Part shown: positions 1 through 61,791 of the stretch, one piece after another | How positions within the stretch are numbered: the first letter of the stretch is position 1 | Layout of the letters: every line of letters begins with the position of its first letter | From: Octopus vulgaris | Lineage: Eukaryota | Direction of reading: 5' to 3' | Length of the DNA: 64,000 nt | NCBI GenBank assembly: GCA_951406725.2 | Contig: OX597819.1 | Coordinates: 56,110,001-56,174,000 of the forward strand | The notes under the pieces: model-generated | Database searches by the model: none | What the model was told of the DNA's origin: nothing | What the model saw: the letters and a program-made list of their open reading frames with translations, nothing else | Made by a program: the position numbers and the translations under genes

Positions 1-198
1 ACTCCTTTACTCTTTTACTTGTTTCAGTCATGTGCTGGAGCACAGCCTTTAGTCGAGCAAATCGACCCCAGGACTTATTCTATCGGTCTCTTTTGCCGAA
101 CCGCTTAGTTACGGGGGTGTAAACACACCAGCATCGGTTGTCGAGCGATGTTGGGGGGACAAACACGGATACACAAACACACACACACACATACACAT
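1..198 (-). mobile_element. tRNA-headed SINE family S1, 3' half (5' half at 1267-1410; split by insert 199-1220)
   Basis: Matches the 3' half of uninterrupted copies at 8976-9414, 34375-34836 and 45908-46297. Confidence 0.85.
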
Positions 199-683
199 AA
201 GGGACTAAAGCCATCATGCTAGATAGGGAGGGTGGTGGGTGTTACTGTGCATTTAGCCCCAGGCGAACATCGACGTCACCAGAAGACCGTCACGGTGCCT
301 AACCGAAATATCGATACGAAACACACAACCATGTTTCAGGTGGTATCACGGCGGTGGTGGCCTCCGCTCGACGAATCACTCTGCAGGATTTTTTATGATT
401 TTCAGCAAATACATTTGCTGATTCGAAAATCTGCGAAGCAAATATATATATAATATATATAAGCCATCTGAATAGGTAGACAGCAGGGGGGTGTTAGCCC
501 TGTCCCTAGCCATATTCAGATGGCTTTAGTCCCTTATGTTATCGAGCAGTTACTGTCTATATCCCTTTTAGAGAATTATTATTGCTTTCGAACAGATTTT
601 CGAAATCAGCAAATGTATTTTGCTTGAAAATCTATATAAGAAAATCCTGCAGAGTGAGAATTCGTCGAGGAAGCGGAGGCCTA

Positions 684-733
684 CCACACGCCGATGATAG
701 GCAATACACCTTGAAACCATGGTCCGTGTGTGG
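684..733 (+). ncRNA. Minimal type I hammerhead ribozyme (U4C core variant)
   Basis: cacacg-CCGATGA-t agg caataca cct t-GAAA-ccatgg-TC-cgtgtg; stem III palindrome accatggt; stem I extends as gaagcgga/tccgcttc. Confidence 0.8.
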
Positions 734-961
734 TTTCCGCTTCATCGGGGAATTACCTCCCTTTGCAGGTTAAGGGCACCGTGACGGTGTCGAGCCTTTC
801 TGGTGACGTCGATGTTCGCCTGGGGCTAAATGCAACAGTAACACCCCCACCACCCTGCCCTGTCCCTAGCCATATTCAGATGGCTTTAGTCCCTTATGTT
901 ATCGAGCAGTTACTGTCTATATCCCTTTTAGAGAATTATTATTGCGAGAAGCGGAGGCCTA

Positions 962-1011
962 CCACACGCCGATGATAGGCAATACACCTTGAAACCATGG
1001 TCCGTGTGTGG
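962..1011 (+). ncRNA. Minimal type I hammerhead ribozyme, second tandem copy
   Basis: Same sequence as 684-733; GTC at 1000-1002. Confidence 0.8.
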
Positions 1012-1219
1012 TTTCCGCTTCATCGGGGAATTACCTCCTTTGCAGGTTAAGGGCACCGTGACGGTGTCGAGCCTTTCTGGTGACGTCGATGTTCGCCTGG
1101 GGCTAAATGCAACAGTAACACCCCCACCACCCTGCCTGTCCCTAGCCATATTCAGATGGCTTTAGTCCTTATGTTATCGAGCAGTTACTGTCTATATCCC
1201 TTTTAGAGAATTATTATTG

Positions 1220-1266
<47 letters not shown>

Positions 1267-9250: not shown

Positions 9251-9414
9251 TACGACGGGTTTCTTTCAGTTTCCGTCTACCAAATCCACTCACAAGGCTT
9301 TGTTCGACCCGAGGCTATAGTAGAAGACACTTACCCAAGATGCCATGTAGTGGGACTGAACCCGGAACCATGTGGTTCGTAAGCAAGCTAATTACCACAC
9401 AACCACTCCTACGC
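8976..9414 (-). mobile_element. SINE S1, full length
   Basis: Head, internal microsatellite and tail all present. Confidence 0.9.
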
Positions 9415-9691
9415 CTGGTGATTAATACACGTTGAGGACGGATAACTACTCAGAAAGTCAAGTCCGTGTGTATCACGTAAGCCCAACTAAGTGTGGCGTC
9501 TTACACAGGATAGTGCTACTGATGTTTCTAGTCCCAGGAAAAAATTTCCTCTAGCTGACTAACGATATATATTCTATGTCCGATTGGTTTTTGCGAGGGG
9601 AGGTCATCGCTCCCATCTCTAGCCTTACGTGATACACACGGACTTGAGTTTCTGGGTGGTTACCCGTCCTTAGCGTGTGTTAATCACCAGG
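9415..9691. mobile_element. Family A fold-back with two degenerate, convergent hammerheads (9427-9469 +, 9634-9680 -)
   Basis: Arms 9415-9480/9625-9691; cores TTGAGGA and CTAAGGA give consensus CTGAGGA; spacer homologous to 44690-44820. Confidence 0.75.
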
Positions 9692-17029: not shown

Positions 17030-18180
17030 TTATAAGTTAAGTTAATTTTTTGGCTCAAAAAGCAAAAAGCAAGGCCATGTAGGGGGACATGGAGTTATGT
17101 ACAGGGAGGGTGTTCATGCAAAGAGTTCAGGCCATTTCTGGTCAAGAGAGACTTTGAACCGAGCGGTCGTCGGCATCTTCACTATCCCGTCCGGCAGCTT
17201 ATTCCACGGATCCGTAACACGGACGGAGAAAGCCCCTCTCCTTCGATTGAGATGAAATCGTCGCAGATAGAGCTTTTCGGAGTGACCCCGCAGCCGACGC
17301 TCTGGAGCAGGAGTGAAGAACAGCTCTTTCGAGAGGTTACACTTTCCGCTTATGATGTTGTGAGCGAGAATGAGATCACCACGGCGTCGTCGTTTTTCTA
17401 GAGAATAAAGGTCGAGCGTCTTCAGCCTTTCTTCATAAGACAAATGCTTGAGACCAAGAACCATGCGGGTAGCCAGCTTCTGGACTATTTCGAGATGATG
17501 TATCTCTTTGAGGAGATAAGGAGAAGAGGCTTGAATCCCGTACTCCAATATGGGTCTCACCGGCGTGATATAGAGCGGTAGGAATATGGATGCTGTGAGC
17601 ATTCCGAATGACCGTCGAATCAAAAACAGAACTCCGCGTGCTTTGTTGGCAGCATGGACGCACTGGGCCGAAGGCGAAAAGGAATAATCCACCAAGTTAC
17701 CCAGGTCCTTTACCTGGTCGGTCCTCTCCAGCAGCAGACGACCCGGCTCGAAATCAAGTTGAGTTGCAGGAGAAGAGCCAAAAGGCAGATGACAGCACTT
17801 TGACACGTTCAGACACAGGTCCCATTCGTTAGACCCTCTCCAAACTTGGTGGAGGCATCGACGAAGATCATCTATATCACCGCGAGGAGTGACCAGTTTG
17901 ACATCATCGGCAAATAGAAGGGTGTGTTGCGTGAGGTCGTCGGGCAAGTCATTTATGAAGACTAAAAACAATAAGGGCCCAAGCACTGAACCTTGAGGCA
18001 CGTCACTGCTCGCACTGGAGATGTCGAACAGCGAACCATTAACTTGGACTTGGAAGGAGCGATCTGAGAGGAAGGTACCAACCCATCGTACAATATCCGG
18101 ATGGAAACTATATGCTTGAAGCCTGACAAGTAATAGGCGGTGGTTAACCGAGTCACTACAATAATACTCCTTTGTATTTC
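17030..18180 (-). mobile_element. 5'-truncated CR1/L2-group LINE
   Basis: RT C-terminal half, short 3' UTR and (TTAAC)-like tail. Confidence 0.9.
17114..18001 (-). pseudogene. LINE reverse transcriptase fragment (295 aa open frame)
   Basis: PQGSVLGPLLFLVFINDL, FADD, RPILEY, SYEERLKTLDLYSLEKRRRRGDLI, FSVRVTDPWNKLP motifs; upstream part frameshifted. Confidence 0.95.
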
Positions 18181-18489
18181 TCCGTCACAGCATATGAATG
18201 AGAAATAATGGGGTGATCCACCGATAGACGTGGGATGGTGAAAAGTCAACGGTGAAACAAAAATCAAACAGCGCTTCAACTCTGCGTGAGTATATGTGTG
18301 CGTGTGTAAAAGGGAGGAATGTGAAAGTTTGTGTATGTGTGTGTGTGTGTGCCTGTGTGTGTGTATGTGTGCGTTTGTGTAAAATAAATTTTGTATGTTT
18401 GAGTGTTTGTGTGTGTTTATTTAGAAACAGATAGAAAATAGAATTACAGGCACATGCGCATTTAGAAATACATACATACATATATATAT

Positions 18490-19759: not shown

Positions 19760-19959
19760 TACGTTTAAATATTTGTTGTGCAAGATATTTTATGTGAAGT
19801 CGTGTGTTGAAACAGATGTTGTTATATTTCGGAATGGTCATAATGCCAGTTTAGCCAATAAAAACACACGCACTATATATGAAGCAAAATAACACCAAAT
19901 ATATAGTGCGTGTGTTTTTATTGGCTAAACTGGCAATATGACCATTCCGAAATATAACA

Positions 19960-19960
<1 letters not shown>
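19760..19960. mobile_element. Small (TA)n-flanked fold-back with possible 3' half of a hammerhead
   Basis: Arms 19819-19880/19899-19960; GAAA-cagatg-TT-gttat at 19809-19825. Confidence 0.6.
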
Positions 19961-20020
<60 letters not shown>

Positions 20021-27113: not shown

Positions 27114-27184
<71 letters not shown>

Positions 27185-27188
<4 letters not shown>

Positions 27189-27695
27189 ACCCCTCTCCGA
27201 AATTACTAGCTTTGTGCCAAAAATTGAACCTATATATGTATATTGTGAAGGCGGCGTGCTGGCATAGTCGTCACTGCACCGTGAAAAATATGCTTAGTGG
27301 CATTTCATCCGACTTTACATTCTGATTTCAAATTCTGCTGAGATCAACTTTGCTTTTTATTCTTTCGGGATCGATACATCAAGTACCAGTTGAGCACTGG
27401 GGTCGATGTAATCGATTTAATCCCTCTCCGAAATTACTGGCTTTGTGCCAAAAATTGAACCTATATATGTATATTGTGAAGGCGGCGTGCTGGCATAGTC
27501 GTCACTGCACCGTGAAAAAAATGTTTAGTGGCATTTCATCCGACTTTACATTCTGAGTTCAAATTCTGCTGAGGTCAACTTTGTTTTTTATTCTTTCGGG
27601 ATCGATACATTAAGTACCAGTTGAGTACTGGGGTCGATGTAATCGACAAAACCCCTTTCCTTAAGTGCTGGCCTTGTGCCAAAATTCAAAACCAA
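27185..27695 (+). repeat. ~231-bp tandem duplication containing SINE S2
   Basis: ccctctccgaaattact...gatgtaatcga repeated at 27190 and 27421. Confidence 0.85.
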
Positions 27696-42326: not shown

Positions 42327-43833
42327 CTACTTTGTACTCATACATATGAAGGCACACACATTAATTGTATGGAAATACATATAAAATGCATTTATTTAAA
42401 GTACCGGTGGGAAGTTGACATAATTGTTAGAGTGTTAGAATGTCTCAGGGTAGTTGCTCAAACACAATGCCCTGTGAGTTCAAATCCTATTGAGGTTGAA
42501 TTTGCCTTTTATACTTTCAGACTCGATATATATATATCTATATCTATATATCTATATATCTATATCTATATCTATCTATCTATCTATCTATCTAACTATC
42601 TATCTATCTATCTATCTATATAAGGAAATAATTTTATTCTGAGACGCAGGAGAATGCTAATAATATGGATAGTTTATCCTATTCATGCTATATTATTAGC
42701 ATTACCCTGCGTTTGTGAATAAAATTATTTCCTTATCTGTATCTTTCAATACATCTCAACGCTTCTACACATATTTCAACCGCACCAATTAGTAACCGTT
42801 TCTTCAGTGTCTTTACTTTAATATCCTTCAATCTAACCGTTTAAAATTTTTCGTTTATCCAATTTGCGTTGTATGATGTAGAGTTTGTCGTTAAGTTTGA
42901 CGCGAACTACCTTCAATTAAAGTTTTGATTCTATAATCACTTATATAATCCTTTATTTCGAAACATTCTGTTCTTTAAATGTTTACTATTCGTTTATACT
43001 GGGAAATGTGAATTTCCCCATGTGCAAGCATCTCAAAACTTGTTCCTGTCTAGAATTTATTACACTATCCTTAGATGTAAAAATCTGGTAAAATTCTTCT
43101 AAACATGGGTTACTCTTTTTAGTTCCAGGTCCGTATGTATAAATTAATCCCCAATTGATAGTATAGCCTTTGTTTCTGACTTTAATAGACCAGATTAATT
43201 AACTAAGACTTGTTTGGAATCTTTTATTTTTATATTTAATGTAATATATTCAGAATTATCCAAGGGAATATATCTCTAAATTCTTATCATATAAGAATAT
43301 TATTAGATTTACATACTAACAGTTGAATAACCCATTTTGAATACCTAACTGTGAGCAAACCGGTAATCGCTTGGAGTAATCCCTTACTCTTTACTTCCCT
43401 CTCACCCACTCTCTCTCTGTATATATATGTGCGTGTGCGTGTGTGCGTGTGTGTGTGTGCGTGTGTGTGTGCATGTGTGTGTGTGTGTATGTGCGTAAAT
43501 ACATTCATTATATTAAGGGTTATAACTACACGTAAATTCCTCACACTGTTATGGGTCTCTGAAGTCAAACTACTTTAATAAATGCACACGGCACGGAAAG
43601 CGACTAAATCTGTTTTTAAAAGGTAACATTTCAAGTTGCATTCTTTCGCTTTCGGTTCCATGTGTATTTAGTAAAGTAGTTTGACTTCAGAGTTTCGAAA
43701 CAGCGAAAGGCATTTACGTATAGTAATAAATGTATTTATATTCAAAGGGAAAAATTATATATTTTGTATGAATTTTTTCCTGAACTAGTTTCCCACGCTG
43801 ACTACTTGATAAATTCTTATATAGATTTTATCC

Positions 43834-43965: not shown

Positions 43966-44013
<48 letters not shown>

Positions 44014-44114
44014 TAATAAAAGGCTTCAAATAAGGTAGCGTAGTGCTAGAAACACAAAAAGGGATAAATTCATGAAAGGAATGAAAATTAAAAACATTTA
44101 CCATCTCAGCTATA

Positions 44115-44190
44115 TCCCAGACCGAACGGTTTCTACCTATTTTTAGCAAACACACAGAATATATTTGCTAGGCCAGGTTCTTCAGTGGGA
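44115..44190 (-). ncRNA. Type I hammerhead ribozyme
   Basis: tccca-CTGAAGA-acct...aggt a-GAAA-ccgttcgg-TC-tggga. Confidence 0.9.
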
Positions 44191-44321
44191 AGCCTTCGTA
44201 ATCCTAGACGCACAGACTGTTAGAAGCACATGTAGATCTAAAGGTTTGAAAAGTTAGGATATACAAAGCGTTAGATCTACATGTGCCTCTAACAGTCTGT
44301 GCGTCTAGGATTACGAAGGTT

Positions 44322-44398
44322 TCCCACTGAAGAACCTGGCCTAGCAAATATATTCTGTGTGTTTGCTAAAAATAGGTAGAAACCGTTCGTGTCTGGGA
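44322..44398 (+). ncRNA. Type I hammerhead ribozyme (1-nt insertion in stem III)
   Basis: tccca-CTGAAGA-...-GAAA-ccgttcgtg-TC-tggga. Confidence 0.8.
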
Positions 44399-44593
44399 TA
44401 TAGCTGAGATGGTAAATGTTTTTAATTTTCATTCCTTTCATGAATTTATCCCTTTTTGTGTTTCTAGCACTACGCTACCTTATTTGGAAGCCTTTTATTA
44501 TATTTCTATACGAAAAATATATAGTCTAATGACTAATTCGTCCTTTGTGCTAGGCCACTGGTAATAATAAATTATTTTATTACCCTATTTGAT

Positions 44594-44652
<59 letters not shown>

Positions 44653-44656
<4 letters not shown>

Positions 44657-45215
44657 CGTATATTTGCCATTTAAATATGGCTAACCCCTAAGGGTGGATG
44701 CTACTGTAGTTTGTAGCCCCAGGAGGACACCTCCTCCAGCTGGCTATAGACACACTTTCTGTGCCCTATCAGTATTTGCAAAGGGAAGCCATCCTTCTCG
44801 TCTTCAACTTATGATACACACGGACTCGAGTTTCTGGGTATTAACGATTGTCTCACGCCGATGACGGGTCAATACCCAGAAACTCGAGTCCGTGTGTATC
44901 ATAAATTGAAGACGGGAAAGATGGCTTCCCTTTGCAAATACTGATAGGGCACAGAAAGTGTGTCTATAGCCAGCTGGAGGAGGTGTCCTCCTGGGGCTAC
45001 AAACTACAGTAGCATCCACCCTTAGGGGTTAGCCATATTTAAATGGCAAATATACGTCACGATGTGTTGCAGCTACTGTTTATAACTCGCTCTAAGATTT
45101 ACTATTGCTTGTTTACACTTTTTCGATATCAGTGTCTGTACGATACTGGAAAAAGGATATGTATTTGCGAAGGGAACCTATTTTTCATCGACAACTATGA
45201 TTGTCACTATGATTG
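44653..45215 (+). mobile_element. Family A fold-back, third locus
   Basis: Arms 44653-44842/44871-45060 with 3 mismatches, followed by the family A tail. Confidence 0.85.
44854..44896 (+). ncRNA. Minimal type I hammerhead (U4C core variant)
   Basis: cacg-CCGATGA-c gggt caat accc a-GAAA-ctcgag-TC-cgtg; palindrome actcgagt. Confidence 0.8.
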
Positions 45216-47574: not shown

Positions 47575-47577
<3 letters not shown>

Positions 47578-48326
47578 TAAGGGTAAAAATTGATATTAGT
47601 CAATTAAAACCAGTGGTCTAGCATATTAAAAAGAATCCGAAGATTAAAATATTTATATATACCAATTAAGGACTGAACACGAAAAAGTGGACAGTCAACA
47701 TGCTAGATATAGACGTCAAATCGCCATTCTCCACAAAGATTATGTTCTCAAATAAAATAAAATTCAGCACGACCCAAAGCAATAGATAAGACAAAAGAAA
47801 TATACGAAATGGAATAATCACCTGTGTACCGAACGGTTTCAGTTATTAATATCACAAGGATATCTGTAACTTCGTCAGCACAGTTTGTTATGAAAATAAT
47901 TTGCTGTACTAAATGAAAAACGATACCGGAGTCTCGTATGCAAAAAGTACAACCGATTAAGTTCGAATGTATCTTTCAAATGCCTTTACTTTTGGCGCGC
48001 TGAGACTCGAAAAACCAGCATGCAGCTAATAATTAGCAGCAGTCAATTTATCGGTTTAAGAACATATATTTCATATTTAAAAATTAAGGGTAAAAATTGA
48101 TATTAGTCAATTAAAACCAGTGGTCTAGCATATTAAAAAGAATCCGAAGATTAAAATATTTATATATACCAATTAAGGACTGAACACGAAAAAGTGGACA
48201 GTCAACATGCTTTTGGGTCGTGCTGAATCTTATTTTATTTGAGAACATAATCTTTGTGGAGAATGGCGATTTGACGTCTATATCTAGCATGTTGACCGTC
48301 CACTTTTTCGTGTTCAGTCCTTAATT

Positions 48327-48330
<4 letters not shown>
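47575..48330 (-). mobile_element. Penelope-like tandem+inverted element (family E)
   Basis: Direct repeat 47575-47703 = 48081-48210; 48211-48330 inverts ~47658-47780; (TA)n on both sides. Confidence 0.85.
47822..47883 (-). ncRNA. Canonical-core type I hammerhead ribozyme
   Basis: ctgtg-CTGACGA-agtta..gatatc cttgt gatatt..taact-GAAA-ccgttcgg-TA-cacag. Confidence 0.9.
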
Positions 48331-49085: not shown

Positions 49086-51486
49086 CAGTGATTCCCAGCG
49101 TGGTCCCTGAGGCCCAGTGGTGGTCCCCAGAGAATTTGTAGCCATAAAAATTTGAAGCCATTTCAGATCTACACAATATTGTTCGATAATAAAAACACTG
49201 TTAGCTAATAATAATTTATAAGAAGACAATAATAATAAGAAAACAAAATAATATATTACAATTAAGAATTACCTAATTTAAATTTTACAATCACAACAGT
49301 TTCATAATAAATTTTGATATTTTTAATATTTCGCTACATAATATTGTTTAATAATATATTTGATACTTTTAATTTATAGAAATAAAGTATTTATTATTTT
49401 ATAAAAATAAAGTATTTATCATTTATATTTTTTAAAGATCAGTTGTAATAATGTCTGAAACAACTGTTAAGAAGGCAAAACTGAGGAACTACAAAGAAGA
49501 TTTTATCATGTTTGGTTTTGTATCTGTAGACTCAAAACCTATGTATCTTGAATGTGATGCCATCATGACAAATCAGCATCAGAAATTAAGGCATCCGTCA
49601 TCTGTTGGTAAAGGTAGGGGAACGTTTTGAGAATAAAAAGAAAATACAGCCAATCAAACTACCCGGCTTTGTGAAGATCAATACTGAAAAAGCAAAGACA
49701 CTCAAACCAAGTTATTTGGTCTCTGAAATTATTGCCAAGGTTGCAGCACCTCAGATTTATGGTGAGAAACTTGTCAAGCCTGCTATGATAGCTTGTGCAA
49801 AAGAGGTTCTGGGAAAAGATGCTGCATCTACTCTGAGTACAATTCTACTTTCAAATAACACAGTTACAAGAAGACAGGATGAAATGTCTAATTTTGTTGA
49901 GGAGAAGATTGTGGAAATTTTCCAGACACATTTTTCTATCCAGGTTGATGAGAACACAATTCATAACCAAGCTATCATTCTGGTCTATGTCAGATTCATC
50001 CATGAAGATGATATAAAGGAAGAAATGTTATTCATTAAAAGTTTGTCTGAAACTACTAATGGAGAAGATATATTCAATGATGTAATGTAGTATTTTGATG
50101 ATAAAAATATTCCATTGACTAATTTGATCAACATTGCATCAGATGGAGCTGCAGCCATGACTGGAAAAGTGAAAGGCTTTGCTTCTAGAATGAAATTAAT
50201 TGCTTTTCACATTTTTCATATACATTGCATTATCCACAGACAGCATTTGGTTGCTAAGAATATTGGAGGACACATGGAAGAAGCACTCAACACTGCCATA
50301 CATGCAATTAACTTTGTCAAATCAAACTCAGTGAATAATAAGATTTTTTATACAATTCTGTGAAGATGAAGAGTTTAAAACCCTATTGCTTCACACAGAA
50401 GTAAGATGGTTGTCAAAAGGCCTGAGCCTTGAAAGACTTGTGAATTTGTGGGAACCATTAATCAACTTTTTCATGTTCAAGAGTCAGATGACTCATTACA
50501 ACACCAAAAAGCAAGCTGATACTGCTAAGAAAATTTTGGAAAGACTTTCGGAGTTTAAATCCAAAATATTCTGCTTGAGTGATATTTTTAAAACAGTGAA
50601 TCTACTTAACTTAGGTAGAAAATCAGATTTGGTCACCTGACCTCAGAAGATAAAATGGTATATGGGAAAATTAAAATTTTGGAAAAATTAGTTTGAATAA
50701 ATAAATTTGGCATCATTTTAAGATTTTAACACCACTGTTACTACATCAGAAGGTATTACTGCATGCATTGCTATTATTGAAGGTCTTCATGTAGAATTTG
50801 AAAGAAGATACAATGATTTATTAAAGATGGATTATCCACTCTGGTTTGTAGACCTAGAAAATTATGAGCCAGAAGATGAAAATTTTGTGTTGGCTGAAAT
50901 GTTGTTAGATTTGGAAGGGAATATGAAACTGAGAAAAAGAGTTGAAAAAGAAGGTGTATTTACCTACATATCGATAAAGGAATCACACCCAAATATTTTT
51001 CGACATGTAGAAGCAAGCATCATTTCTTTTCCTACCAGATGCATGGTGGAATCTGCATTTTCATCTGTTGTAGATATTTTAAGTAGAAAAAGAAAAAAAA
51101 ATTGTCAACAGCAGAGGAACTATCAGACTAAAGCTAAATGAGTTCATGAAAATTGATTATGATATCTTGTGTCAGAAACACCAATATCAAGCTAGTCACC
51201 AGCTGAATGGACTAAAAATGAACGACTTTATGAAAAATGATTTTGATATCTTGTGTCAGAAACACCAATATCAAGCTAGTCACAAGCTGAACGGTCTAAA
51301 AAAGAACGACTTTATGAAAAAGGATTTTGAGATCTTGTGTTTATCTTTGTTTACTAACATAAATTAAAAATTTTATCTCTTGTTTGCTAAAATAAATTTC
51401 GAGGTGTAAATAGACTATTTTGTCTTTTCATTAAGTATTTTAGTGTGAAAATAAAACGGCATAAAGTAAAAGGTTGGGAACCACTG
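49086..51486 (+). mobile_element. Full-length hAT transposon, Buster/Charlie type
   Basis: TIR cagtgattcccagc / ggttgggaaccactg; perfect 8-bp TSD GTATAGAA (NNNTANNN) at 49078-49085 and 51487-51494. Confidence 0.95.
49451..51210 (+). pseudogene. Disrupted hAT transposase
   Basis: LSNNTVTRR, FSIQVDE, DGAAAMTG, HCIIHRQHL, HTEVRWLSKG, VESAFS motifs over several frames with stops; 84-bp tandem duplication at 51146-51340. Confidence 0.95.
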
Positions 51487-52684: not shown

Positions 52685-52688
<4 letters not shown>

Positions 52689-52989
52689 AGTAGTAACAAG
52701 AATATCTTCAGTAATTTGGTACGATCGTTTCACGCTACATCATTTTATTAAACATTGTAAGTATTACATCAGTTTTAAAATGTTGACCAATTGATCAACA
52801 TTTTAAAACTGATGTAATACTTACAATGTTTTATAAAATGATGTAGCGTGAAACGATCGTACCAAATTACCGAAGATATTCTTGTTGCTTACTTTGATTA
52901 TAATCATCCCATGGATTTATATGGATAACAACGTACAAAATTCTGGTGCATCTCACTTAAGCACCATATTCACTTGAATCTAAATTTTG

Positions 52990-58479: not shown

Positions 58480-59229
58480 CAATATTTTATAATTACGAGT
58501 ATAACTATAATTAGGGTTCAGCAAAGATTTGCTTTATCACATACCGAAATTTAGAAATAGCAGCCAAAGAACCTTAGCTATTTCTTCTACTGTAAGAAGA
58601 GGGTCTCGGACAAAACAAAATACTCGAAATAACCCATGCGGACAGAGAGGAAAAATAACGAAATTCACTCGGTATTTGATTACCTGTGGACGCGTTTCGG
58701 AATTAGATCGGTATGAAGAATGTAAAAATCATACTTCACCCAAACGTTTTCCTCCTCAGTACAGGAATCCACGATATTAGATTTGAGAGCACTGGAATTG
58801 AACATACCTATCCAATTCAAAGCAGTATCAGACAAATCATATTCAACGTCCAGTACCAGCGAATTCAAAATATACGAATAAGGTTCCTCACCTTCCCTTG
58901 CCCATCCACGTGTGTTGTCGAGTAAAAATACTACAGAAAAAACTGTAGTTTATTATCAGGGAGAGAATTATATTATCAATAATAATAAAGGGTAAAATTA
59001 ATTAATTAACTAGTAATTAATAATTCCACCACGTAGAATTCGGCATGATAAAAGGACCATTTTTCGGTAAACTTAATATTTTATAATTACAAGGAAAAAT
59101 GTGATTTTTACATTCTTCATACCGATCTAATTCCAAAACGCGTCCACTGGTAAAAAAATGATCCGTTTATCATGCCGAATTCTACTTGGTGGAATTATTA
59201 ATTACTAGTTAATCAATTAATTATTATTG

Positions 59230-61065: not shown

Positions 61066-61069
61066 GTAT

Positions 61070-61707
61070 TAATAGTTATCGCCAAGTAAACATGGCAGTC
61101 CAGAAAAATAGGACGAATGCTGCCACTGGTTAGCTCCAAGAGTCCATCGCGTCTAGGCAGCTATGTGGCACACGAACCTGTGTCCATTATAACCTTCGAA
61201 CAGGGCTACAATGGGCACAGGTTCGTGTGTCAGATAGCTAGCTAGCGGCGAGGGCCTCTTTGAGTTAATCAACGACAGCATTCGTCCTATTTTCCTGGAC
61301 TGCCATGTTAGCTTGGCAATAACTATTACTATCCAATACCGAAATATTAATATTTCTAGTTTTGAAAAACAGTGGAAGTATTCCACTGAATTTTAGGTAA
61401 ATAATCCTTCGAACAGACGGTCAGCAGCGACGCCTGCTGGGTTCGGCTACTCTACATTGATAGGGGGCAAATACCCTGAAAGTAGCCTGTAAATGCCAGA
61501 CCAGCAAGGGGAAGCGGCTGACCTCCCCAGTTCGAAGGTTATATTGGACACAGGTTCATGTGTCACATAGCTAGCTAGAGGCGATGGTCTCTTGGAGCTA
61601 ATCAACGGCAGCATTCGTCCTATTTTCCTGGGCTGCCATTTTAGCTTGGCGATAACTATTAATATTCAGTTCCGCTGCCGTAGTCTCCTTTAGAGAGACT
61701 GAAAAAT

Positions 61708-61710
<3 letters not shown>
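61070..61710 (+). mobile_element. Inverted+tandem element (family G, ~333-nt period) with atypical hammerhead-like motif at 61445-61487
   Basis: 61070-61201 inverts 61529-61660; 61211-61328 repeats 61544-61660; (TA)n on both sides. Confidence 0.8.

Positions 61711-61791
<81 letters not shown>

Follow-up and report, generated by a model that had tools for sequence, protein, structure and literature searches.

Metazoan non-LTR retrozymes, the closest described systems to the locus analysed here, have units of 350–390 nt in mussels and of 330 and 350 nt in the axolotl (Cervera and de la Pena 2020, PMC7229834). According to PMC7761336, retrozyme repeats lack any motif by which the partner mobilising them could be named, and Penelope-like elements (PLEs) were described as a "strong candidate" for that role (PMC7229834). 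Insertions of PLEs are marked by 5′ truncation, partial tandems, an adjacent inverted copy, a tail of 30–40 bp and a bias for (TA)n (PMC8557442; marks also described in PMC8969392), and their pseudo-LTRs carry hammerheads (PMC4209133). Hammerheads of PLEs cleave poorly in vitro, and motifs with a short palindromic helix III work as dimers (PMC4209133). A recent preprint (bioRxiv 10.64898/2026.07.22.740005) proposes an origin of retrozymes from PLEs, on the basis of co-occurrence and of pseudo-LTR phylogeny, mainly in vertebrates; one of nine predicted retrozyme dimers was cleaved. In its main text the word "tail" is absent and "inverted" stands only in a reference. In the literature that we searched (supplements of PMC7229834 and of the preprint excluded), no earlier report of a retrozyme in cephalopods was found.

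The stretch of DNA analysed here (the window) comprises 64,000 nt from Octopus vulgaris and contains four copies, labelled A (195–1220), B (9414–9691), C (44650–45206) and D (61067–61711), of what is probably a multi-copy, protein-free non-LTR retrozyme of about 360 nt, moved in trans by Penelope-type enzymes, for which self-cleavage and RNA circles are predicted. A closed 360-nt unit, a hammerhead motif, a fold conserved round the unit, a cycle free of ORFs and the anatomy of the insertions are seen directly. Like the retrozymes of PMC7229834, the element has a tandem unit within the range of 150–450 bp, one type I hammerhead in each, GC below 50%, no ORF and a strongly self-paired predicted circle; its weak palindromic helix III is like that of the axolotl HHR_Amex1, and the U·U pair at the base of helix II like that of HHR_Amex2 (PMC7229834). 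It is unlike them in having C, not U, at position 4 of the hammerhead core (U4C) and in occurring, in this window, as dispersed partial tandems without long arrays, and its head-to-head arms, 46–48-nt tail and (TA)n targets are not among the features described for retrozymes in the excerpts of PMC7229834. Truncation, tandems, an inverted copy, a tail, microsatellites and a terminal-repeat hammerhead are shared with PLEs (Craig et al. 2021, PMC8557442; Cervera 2014, PMC4209133), whereas the element has no RT/GIY-YIG ORF, its tail measures 46–48 nt rather than 30–40, and its hammerhead is canonical-like, not minimal. An ORF-less unit served in trans by PLE enzymes also agrees with the proposal of the preprint and with Chlamys MRC1 (PMC8557442). 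The U4C change itself is known from a viroid variant (in PMC3088659); here it is common to two subfamilies that are 57% identical. A link between retrozymes and PLEs is thus already proposed; new here are the U4C core and the integration footprint, which is itself the evidence, as opposed to the co-occurrence and phylogeny of the preprint. The features of the four copies are as follows, P1 (unit position 899) being the end of the inverted arm and P2 (945) the end of the direct copy on the copy A unit.

195–496, minus strand: inverted (head-to-head) arm of copy A, compared with 586–899; outer end at P1
497–585, plus strand: last 89 nt of a copy A monomer, continuing into the next monomer; 100% identical to 857–945
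586–945, plus strand: full 360-nt monomer of copy A; 47% GC; stops in all six frames round the circle
592–636, plus strand: two-part hairpin of copy A, conserved in copies A, C (45115–45158) and D (61358–61398)
640–690, plus strand: 5′ strand of the copy A rod, extending hammerhead helix I; pairs with 725–775 (duplex −58.5 kcal/mol)
685–730, plus strand: type I hammerhead motif of copy A, from the motif scan
900–945, plus strand: 46-nt tail of copy A, P1 to P2, from the comparison of end points
948–1220, plus strand: 5′-truncated tandem copy (unit 670–945) of copy A, ending at P2; second hammerhead motif
1221–1270, no strand: 3′ (TA)n tract of copy A, the likely insertion target
9691–9482, minus strand: copy B, a decayed partial copy, with a 68-nt inverted piece at 9414–9481; both cores broken
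44650–44845, minus strand: inverted arm of copy C, 191/196 identical; adjoins (TA)n; outer end at P1
44846–45206, plus strand: copy C, one 354-nt monomer, permuted according to its modelled structure, plus 7 nt; circular fold z −5.2
45160–45206, plus strand: rod strand of copy C, whose counterpart stands upstream of the hammerhead in copy A
61067–61711, plus strand: copy D (new), with inverted arm 61067–61205, direct run 61195–61711 and a 47-nt tail

Locus A reads, in order, (AC)n, inverted arm, 89-nt piece, 360-nt unit, 5′-shortened unit and (TA)n. The initial annotation had reported at 497–1220 a 360-bp period followed by a 5′-shortened unit, and this is borne out: 497–585 and 857–945 agree in all 89 nt and start 360 nt apart, and 948–1220 is 98.9% identical to 670–945, three 1-nt deletions being the sole differences. 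The direct run 497–945 makes 1.25 turns of the 360-nt cycle and is followed by the shortened unit, not by a second full monomer. The inverted arm aligns to 586–899 with 243 matches, 1 mismatch and 34 deletion runs totalling 70 nt; because the arms of copies B, C and D, unlike that of copy A, differ mainly by substitutions, we suspect from the sequence that these deletions arose when long reads of an extended palindrome were misassembled. The homologues claimed at 9415–9691 and 44653–45215 are related, 9514–9685 to 45014–44846 at 73% identity and 44854–45108 to 687–945 at 61% (E 2e-12), but 44650–44845 turned out to be an inverted arm outside the monomer; the sequence blocks said to be shared are present in copies A and C and partial in the 9.5-kb copy, as judged by alignment. 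The inverted arm 195–496 and copy D had no place in the family as first drawn up. Copy D was found by nhmmer with a profile of copies A, B and C (E 1.4e-8); its direct run crosses the monomer junction, it has a degenerate hammerhead near 61457–61495, and (TA)n lies on both sides of it. Copy A, when rotated, is identical to copy C in 200 of 349 aligned columns (57%), with GC of 47% and 43%, respectively, and the copies form three subfamilies whose hairpins are kept alike through compensatory changes. Stops occur in all six frames of the doubled copy A unit, the reading frames of the unit that were tested against Pfam gave no match, and the unit has no tRNA head. A short ORF in the tail region of copies A and C was rejected, as it stops early, is shifted in frame between the two copies and has no start in copy D.

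Besides three unrelated candidates, a motif scan of the window found the type I hammerhead pattern at 691, 969 and 44858. In copy A, helix I comprises 6 bp, CCGAUGA at 691–697 forms the core, helix II has 3 bp over a U·U pair, GAAA follows, and helix III is an 8-nt palindrome (716–723), with the predicted cut after C724. The core of 948–1220 is at 969, with the predicted cut after C1002; copy C has CCGAUGA at 44858, a palindromic helix III at 44882–44889 and a predicted cut after C44890. The palindrome is kept in copies A and C despite a different inner tetramer, and helix I and the loop-2 motif are also kept between these two copies, which are 57% identical overall. The core is thus not CUGAUGA: position 4 is C in copies A and C, and C was the only letter listed at position 692 in all four of the public sequencing runs that we aligned. 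Copies B and D have U at position 4, within broken cores. The two broken cores of copy B together suggest an ancestral CUGAGGA with an ordinary U4. Copy B is closer to copy C than C is to A, and by sequence U4C may have had two origins or may have disappeared in places. In the circular fold, forcing helices I and II costs 5.7 kcal/mol. Rfam gave no match to the whole window at the gathering threshold and none to 480–1230 even at E 10; the matches to copy C were miRNA-like ones on the palindrome and a weak snoRNA one, all below gathering. In the U4C viroid variant, activity is considerably decreased in vitro and sufficient in vivo (as cited in PMC3088659). For CCGAUGA as a hammerhead core, the literature searched offered nothing related; U4C variants may be described by Lunse et al., on PLE hammerhead variants. 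A decayed second hammerhead considered after 45206 was dismissed because 36–208 of 500 shuffles score as well, whichever copy is compared. The hammerhead pattern had one match in metagenome contigs, which we attribute to chance as it lies in GC-rich, gene-like DNA without similarity to the family, and none in viral contigs.

Copy C had been described as running on through the homologue of the 540–640 junction and returning to GATTGTC. The first step holds, since 45064–45165 against 540–640 scores 67, which none of 2000 shuffles reaches, but the later stretches are weak (45110–45215 against 586–690; 11 of 2000 shuffles reach the score) or not significant (45165–45215 against 640–690; 1416 of 2000). 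GATTGTC does occur at 44846 and 45200, 354 nt apart, but alone it is weak, with five occurrences of the 7-mer in the window on both strands. The circular permutation is carried instead by structure: 45160–45206 pairs with 44895–44945 at −40.6 kcal/mol, which beats all 2874 random pieces of the window (best −33.7). The equivalent rod of copy A joins 640–690 with 725–775 and extends helix I, and copy D has the same rod and hairpins, ordered as in copy A. Because the 3′ end of copy C is modelled to pair just after its own hammerhead, its monomer is, by predicted structure, circularly permuted. Closure of the long rod requires a circle or neighbouring units, and the junction from the tail into the segment before the hammerhead is crossed in copies A, C and D.

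The circular minimum free energy of copy A is −116.2 (z −4.7 against 60 shuffles), and three copies have circular-fold z of −4.7, −5.2 and −5.1, with one of 25 background windows lower. The folds of the reverse strands are likewise better than those of shuffles (z −2.1 for A and −5.5 for C), so the z-score alone does not pick the strand. Independent folds of copies A and C have 20 exact pairs in common, five of them changed on both sides, and the joint fold of the two reaches −44.5 as against −18.1 ± 4.9 for 100 shuffles; its 20 double-sided changes are not above those of shuffles (maximum 24). Covariation is found in hairpins outside the ribozyme, at nine of 21 consensus pairs. In the 592–636 hairpin, four of seven pairs change on both sides, a score that four of 500 shuffles reach, the comparison comprising only three sequences. 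In these alignments the compensatory pair changes point to selection on the fold of one strand.

Half or more of the sampled words of the unit are present in 20 of 24 listed public sequencing runs (nine studies, five organism labels), and no listed run with the unit is on record as RNA. Four of the 24 were aligned on 540–899, one of DNA and three guessed to be RNA from three studies, and all four matched the unit at up to 99–100% identity. Of the 1427 contigs from the DNA run, 683 are at least 99% alike, and the family therefore has many young copies; depth in this run is not a measure of their number. In every RNA-guessed run a single contig wraps by 360; the three contigs measure 390, 390 and 358 nt, at depths of 153, 15 and 10, respectively. 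The two 390-nt contigs have one mismatch and are broken at different points, and their length is presumably 360 plus a 30-nt assembly overlap. The joint from 899 to 540 is found in all four aligned runs, and since this includes the DNA run (five contigs), the wrapping contigs do not establish a circular RNA. At the level of sequence they confirm the closed unit, circle and tandem being indistinguishable from contigs whose RNA label is guessed, and a cycle of this kind could also be assembled out of background reads, given the many nearly identical copies. Among the 24 of 97 loose-end rows and 32 of 1511 pieces that were listed, ends after 601 and 609 belong to relatives that keep a CAG-CTG hairpin with other letters, and ends after 587–588 look like flanking DNA; in two of the three RNA-guessed runs, one contig each departs from the unit at 587–588, the tail end. 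Sequence, conserved fold and wrapping contigs together uphold the claim of a closed, circularly permuted, ORF-less monomer of about 355–360 nt with one hammerhead motif. The retrozyme interpretation offered by the initial annotation is therefore supported in its fit to metazoan non-LTR retrozymes, with cleavage and an RNA circle as predictions.

The inverted arms of copies A, C and D end 15, 13 and 14 nt past the same hairpin, and the tails, from this end to the end point of the direct copy, measure 46, 48 and 47 nt. The arm is head to head in these three of the four copies; the arms of copy B point inward, the opposite arrangement. The direct copy stops at the tail point in A and D, and in C it continues, completing a monomer. 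Copy A starts at (AC)n and ends in (TA)n, the arm of copy C abuts (TA)n, and copy D lies between two stretches of (TA)n; such tracts make up 3.7% of the window, and a check for target-site duplications found the flanks of the copies to be microsatellites. The initial annotation had set against its own reading the possibility of fixed linear ends on an ORF-bearing element: the ends are indeed fixed, at two points 46–48 nt apart, and no ORF is attached to them. They lie 175 and 221 nt past the predicted ribozyme cut, and because the copies run across both that cut and the junction between units, we infer that either a circle or a tandem RNA left uncut must have served as template. Three marks of PLE insertion are thus present, namely, 5′-truncated partial tandems with an inverted copy, a tail at one end and a bias for microsatellites, and by analogy with PLEs the offset ends, at fixed positions in three of the copies, point to integration by enzymes of Penelope type. 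Among the 120 longest of 188 filtered open frames of the 64-kb window there was no GIY-YIG domain and no RT plus GIY-YIG ORF of an autonomous PLE, and the unit itself closes at 360 nt; the only RT match among these frames is 16 kb away, with animal LINE-type RTs as its best relatives. No autonomous partner was found in the window, and the 31 recently active PLE families of O. vulgaris (PMC13282606) are possible partners. A motif common with the squid element Naiad is inside the coding sequence of that element and was hence treated as chance.

In the mechanism that we propose, read-through transcription would give a tandem RNA in which two hammerheads would pair via the palindromic helix III and cut after GUC (C724). 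A host ligase would close the monomer, and in the monomeric circle a helix III of 2 bp, together with U4C, would make for slow cutting. A PLE reverse transcriptase and GIY-YIG endonuclease would then nick (TA)n DNA, with priming not at the cut end but at fixed positions, 175 and 221 nt beyond the site of cutting, and copying past one full turn would produce more-than-unit, 5′-truncated, tandem and head-to-head inverted copies with the 46–48-nt offset. It is a tentative proposal, within the retrozyme reading, that the copies in the genome are a record of Penelope-type reverse transcription on a circular RNA template, primed at two internal sites, and that a U4C hammerhead acts only as a dimer and so keeps circles closed. 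U4C, the lack of an Rfam match, the run of copy C past the tail point and the reversed arms of copy B all speak against a retrozyme moved by Penelope-type enzymes, as do the 899-to-540 joint in DNA, the cleavage of only one in nine predicted dimers in the preprint, the number of double-sided changes in the joint fold of A and C, which lies within that of shuffles, and the lack of an autonomous partner in the window. A non-autonomous PLE copied from uncut linear tandem transcripts, with a weak or vestigial hammerhead and no accumulation of circles, would accommodate the U4C of copies A and C and the invariant C at 692 in the four aligned runs, would place the genomic ends at P1 and P2, away from the cut site, and would explain the wrapped contigs, as tandem RNA, equally well as a circle; the poor cleavage of PLE hammerheads in vitro (PMC4209133) is in its favour as well. 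We nevertheless regard it as unlikely, given the conservation of helix I, of the loop-2 motif and of the palindrome in helix III across two copies only 57% identical, the sufficient activity in vivo of a viroid hammerhead that naturally has U4C (PMC3088659), and the need of the long rod for a circle or adjacent units.

Truncated PLE insertions typically show partial tandems, inverted copies, tails and targets in microsatellites, and hammerheads occur in PLE pseudo-LTRs (PMC4209133), so the copies could instead be 5′-truncated pseudo-LTR leftovers of an autonomous, ORF-bearing PLE, the 360-nt period being a local accident. In three divergent copies, however, the tail leads on into one and the same structured segment and, in A and D, to the hammerhead again; closure at 360 is seen in public contigs, and no ORF runs round the cycle; and a helix I of 6 bp with a helix II of 3–4 bp is not the minimal PLE form with its long helix II. 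We find this explanation quite improbable, although, with 24 of 97 loose-end rows listed, a rare ORF-linked form of the unit may exist. More improbable still is a minisatellite, fold-back repeat or assembly artefact at the DNA level with a chance hammerhead-like motif, to which the garbled left arm of copy A, resembling sequencing error, and the absence of an Rfam match would lend themselves, but not the presence of the unit in 20 of 24 listed runs from nine studies, its identity of up to 99–100% in all four aligned, the compensatory pair changes or the fixed, offset ends in three copies. Returning to the retrozyme served by Penelope-type enzymes, a PLE integration signature on ORF-less hammerhead units, with fixed points off the cut site, makes a model of circular templates and PLE enzymes in trans testable, and a U4C common to two subfamilies lends itself to testing what prevents retrozyme circles from opening again. 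If the tentative proposal of a circular template is true, the copies would provide a direct footprint naming the mobiliser of animal retrozymes and a possible answer to why the circles stay closed.

Elsewhere in the window, 44013–44598 is a head-to-head palindrome, 95% identical over 491 nt, between (TA)n tracts, and in the vicinity of 44327–44395, in its right arm, is a hammerhead-like motif whose core is CUGAAGA and which, with its long helix II, resembles the minimal PLE form; by its sequence, this palindrome appears to represent a second family with an anatomy similar to that of the family described above. Hammerhead-like cores with a long helix II also lie beside (TA)n tracts at 47878 (minus strand) and 20148 (plus strand), the former within a direct-plus-inverted repeat structure at 47575–48328. 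Further long palindromes are located at 1912–2513, 19816–19963, 42620–42736, 43520–43729, 52685–52897 and 58996–59222, and may be more Penelope-type insertions; those at 19816 and 52685, the two that were viewed, abut (TA)n. A 356-aa open frame on the minus strand (17117–18184) encodes a LINE reverse transcriptase (PF00078, E 2e-14). Its relatives are exclusively animal LINE-type proteins, at no more than 50% identity, and we take it to be of CR1 type. On the plus strand, broken frames at 49590–51138, which by eye presumably resemble a hAT-type transposase, gave no match to Pfam. Tandem repeats are found at 27184–27684 (period 231, 2.2 copies) and 51146–51340 (period 84, 2.3 copies).
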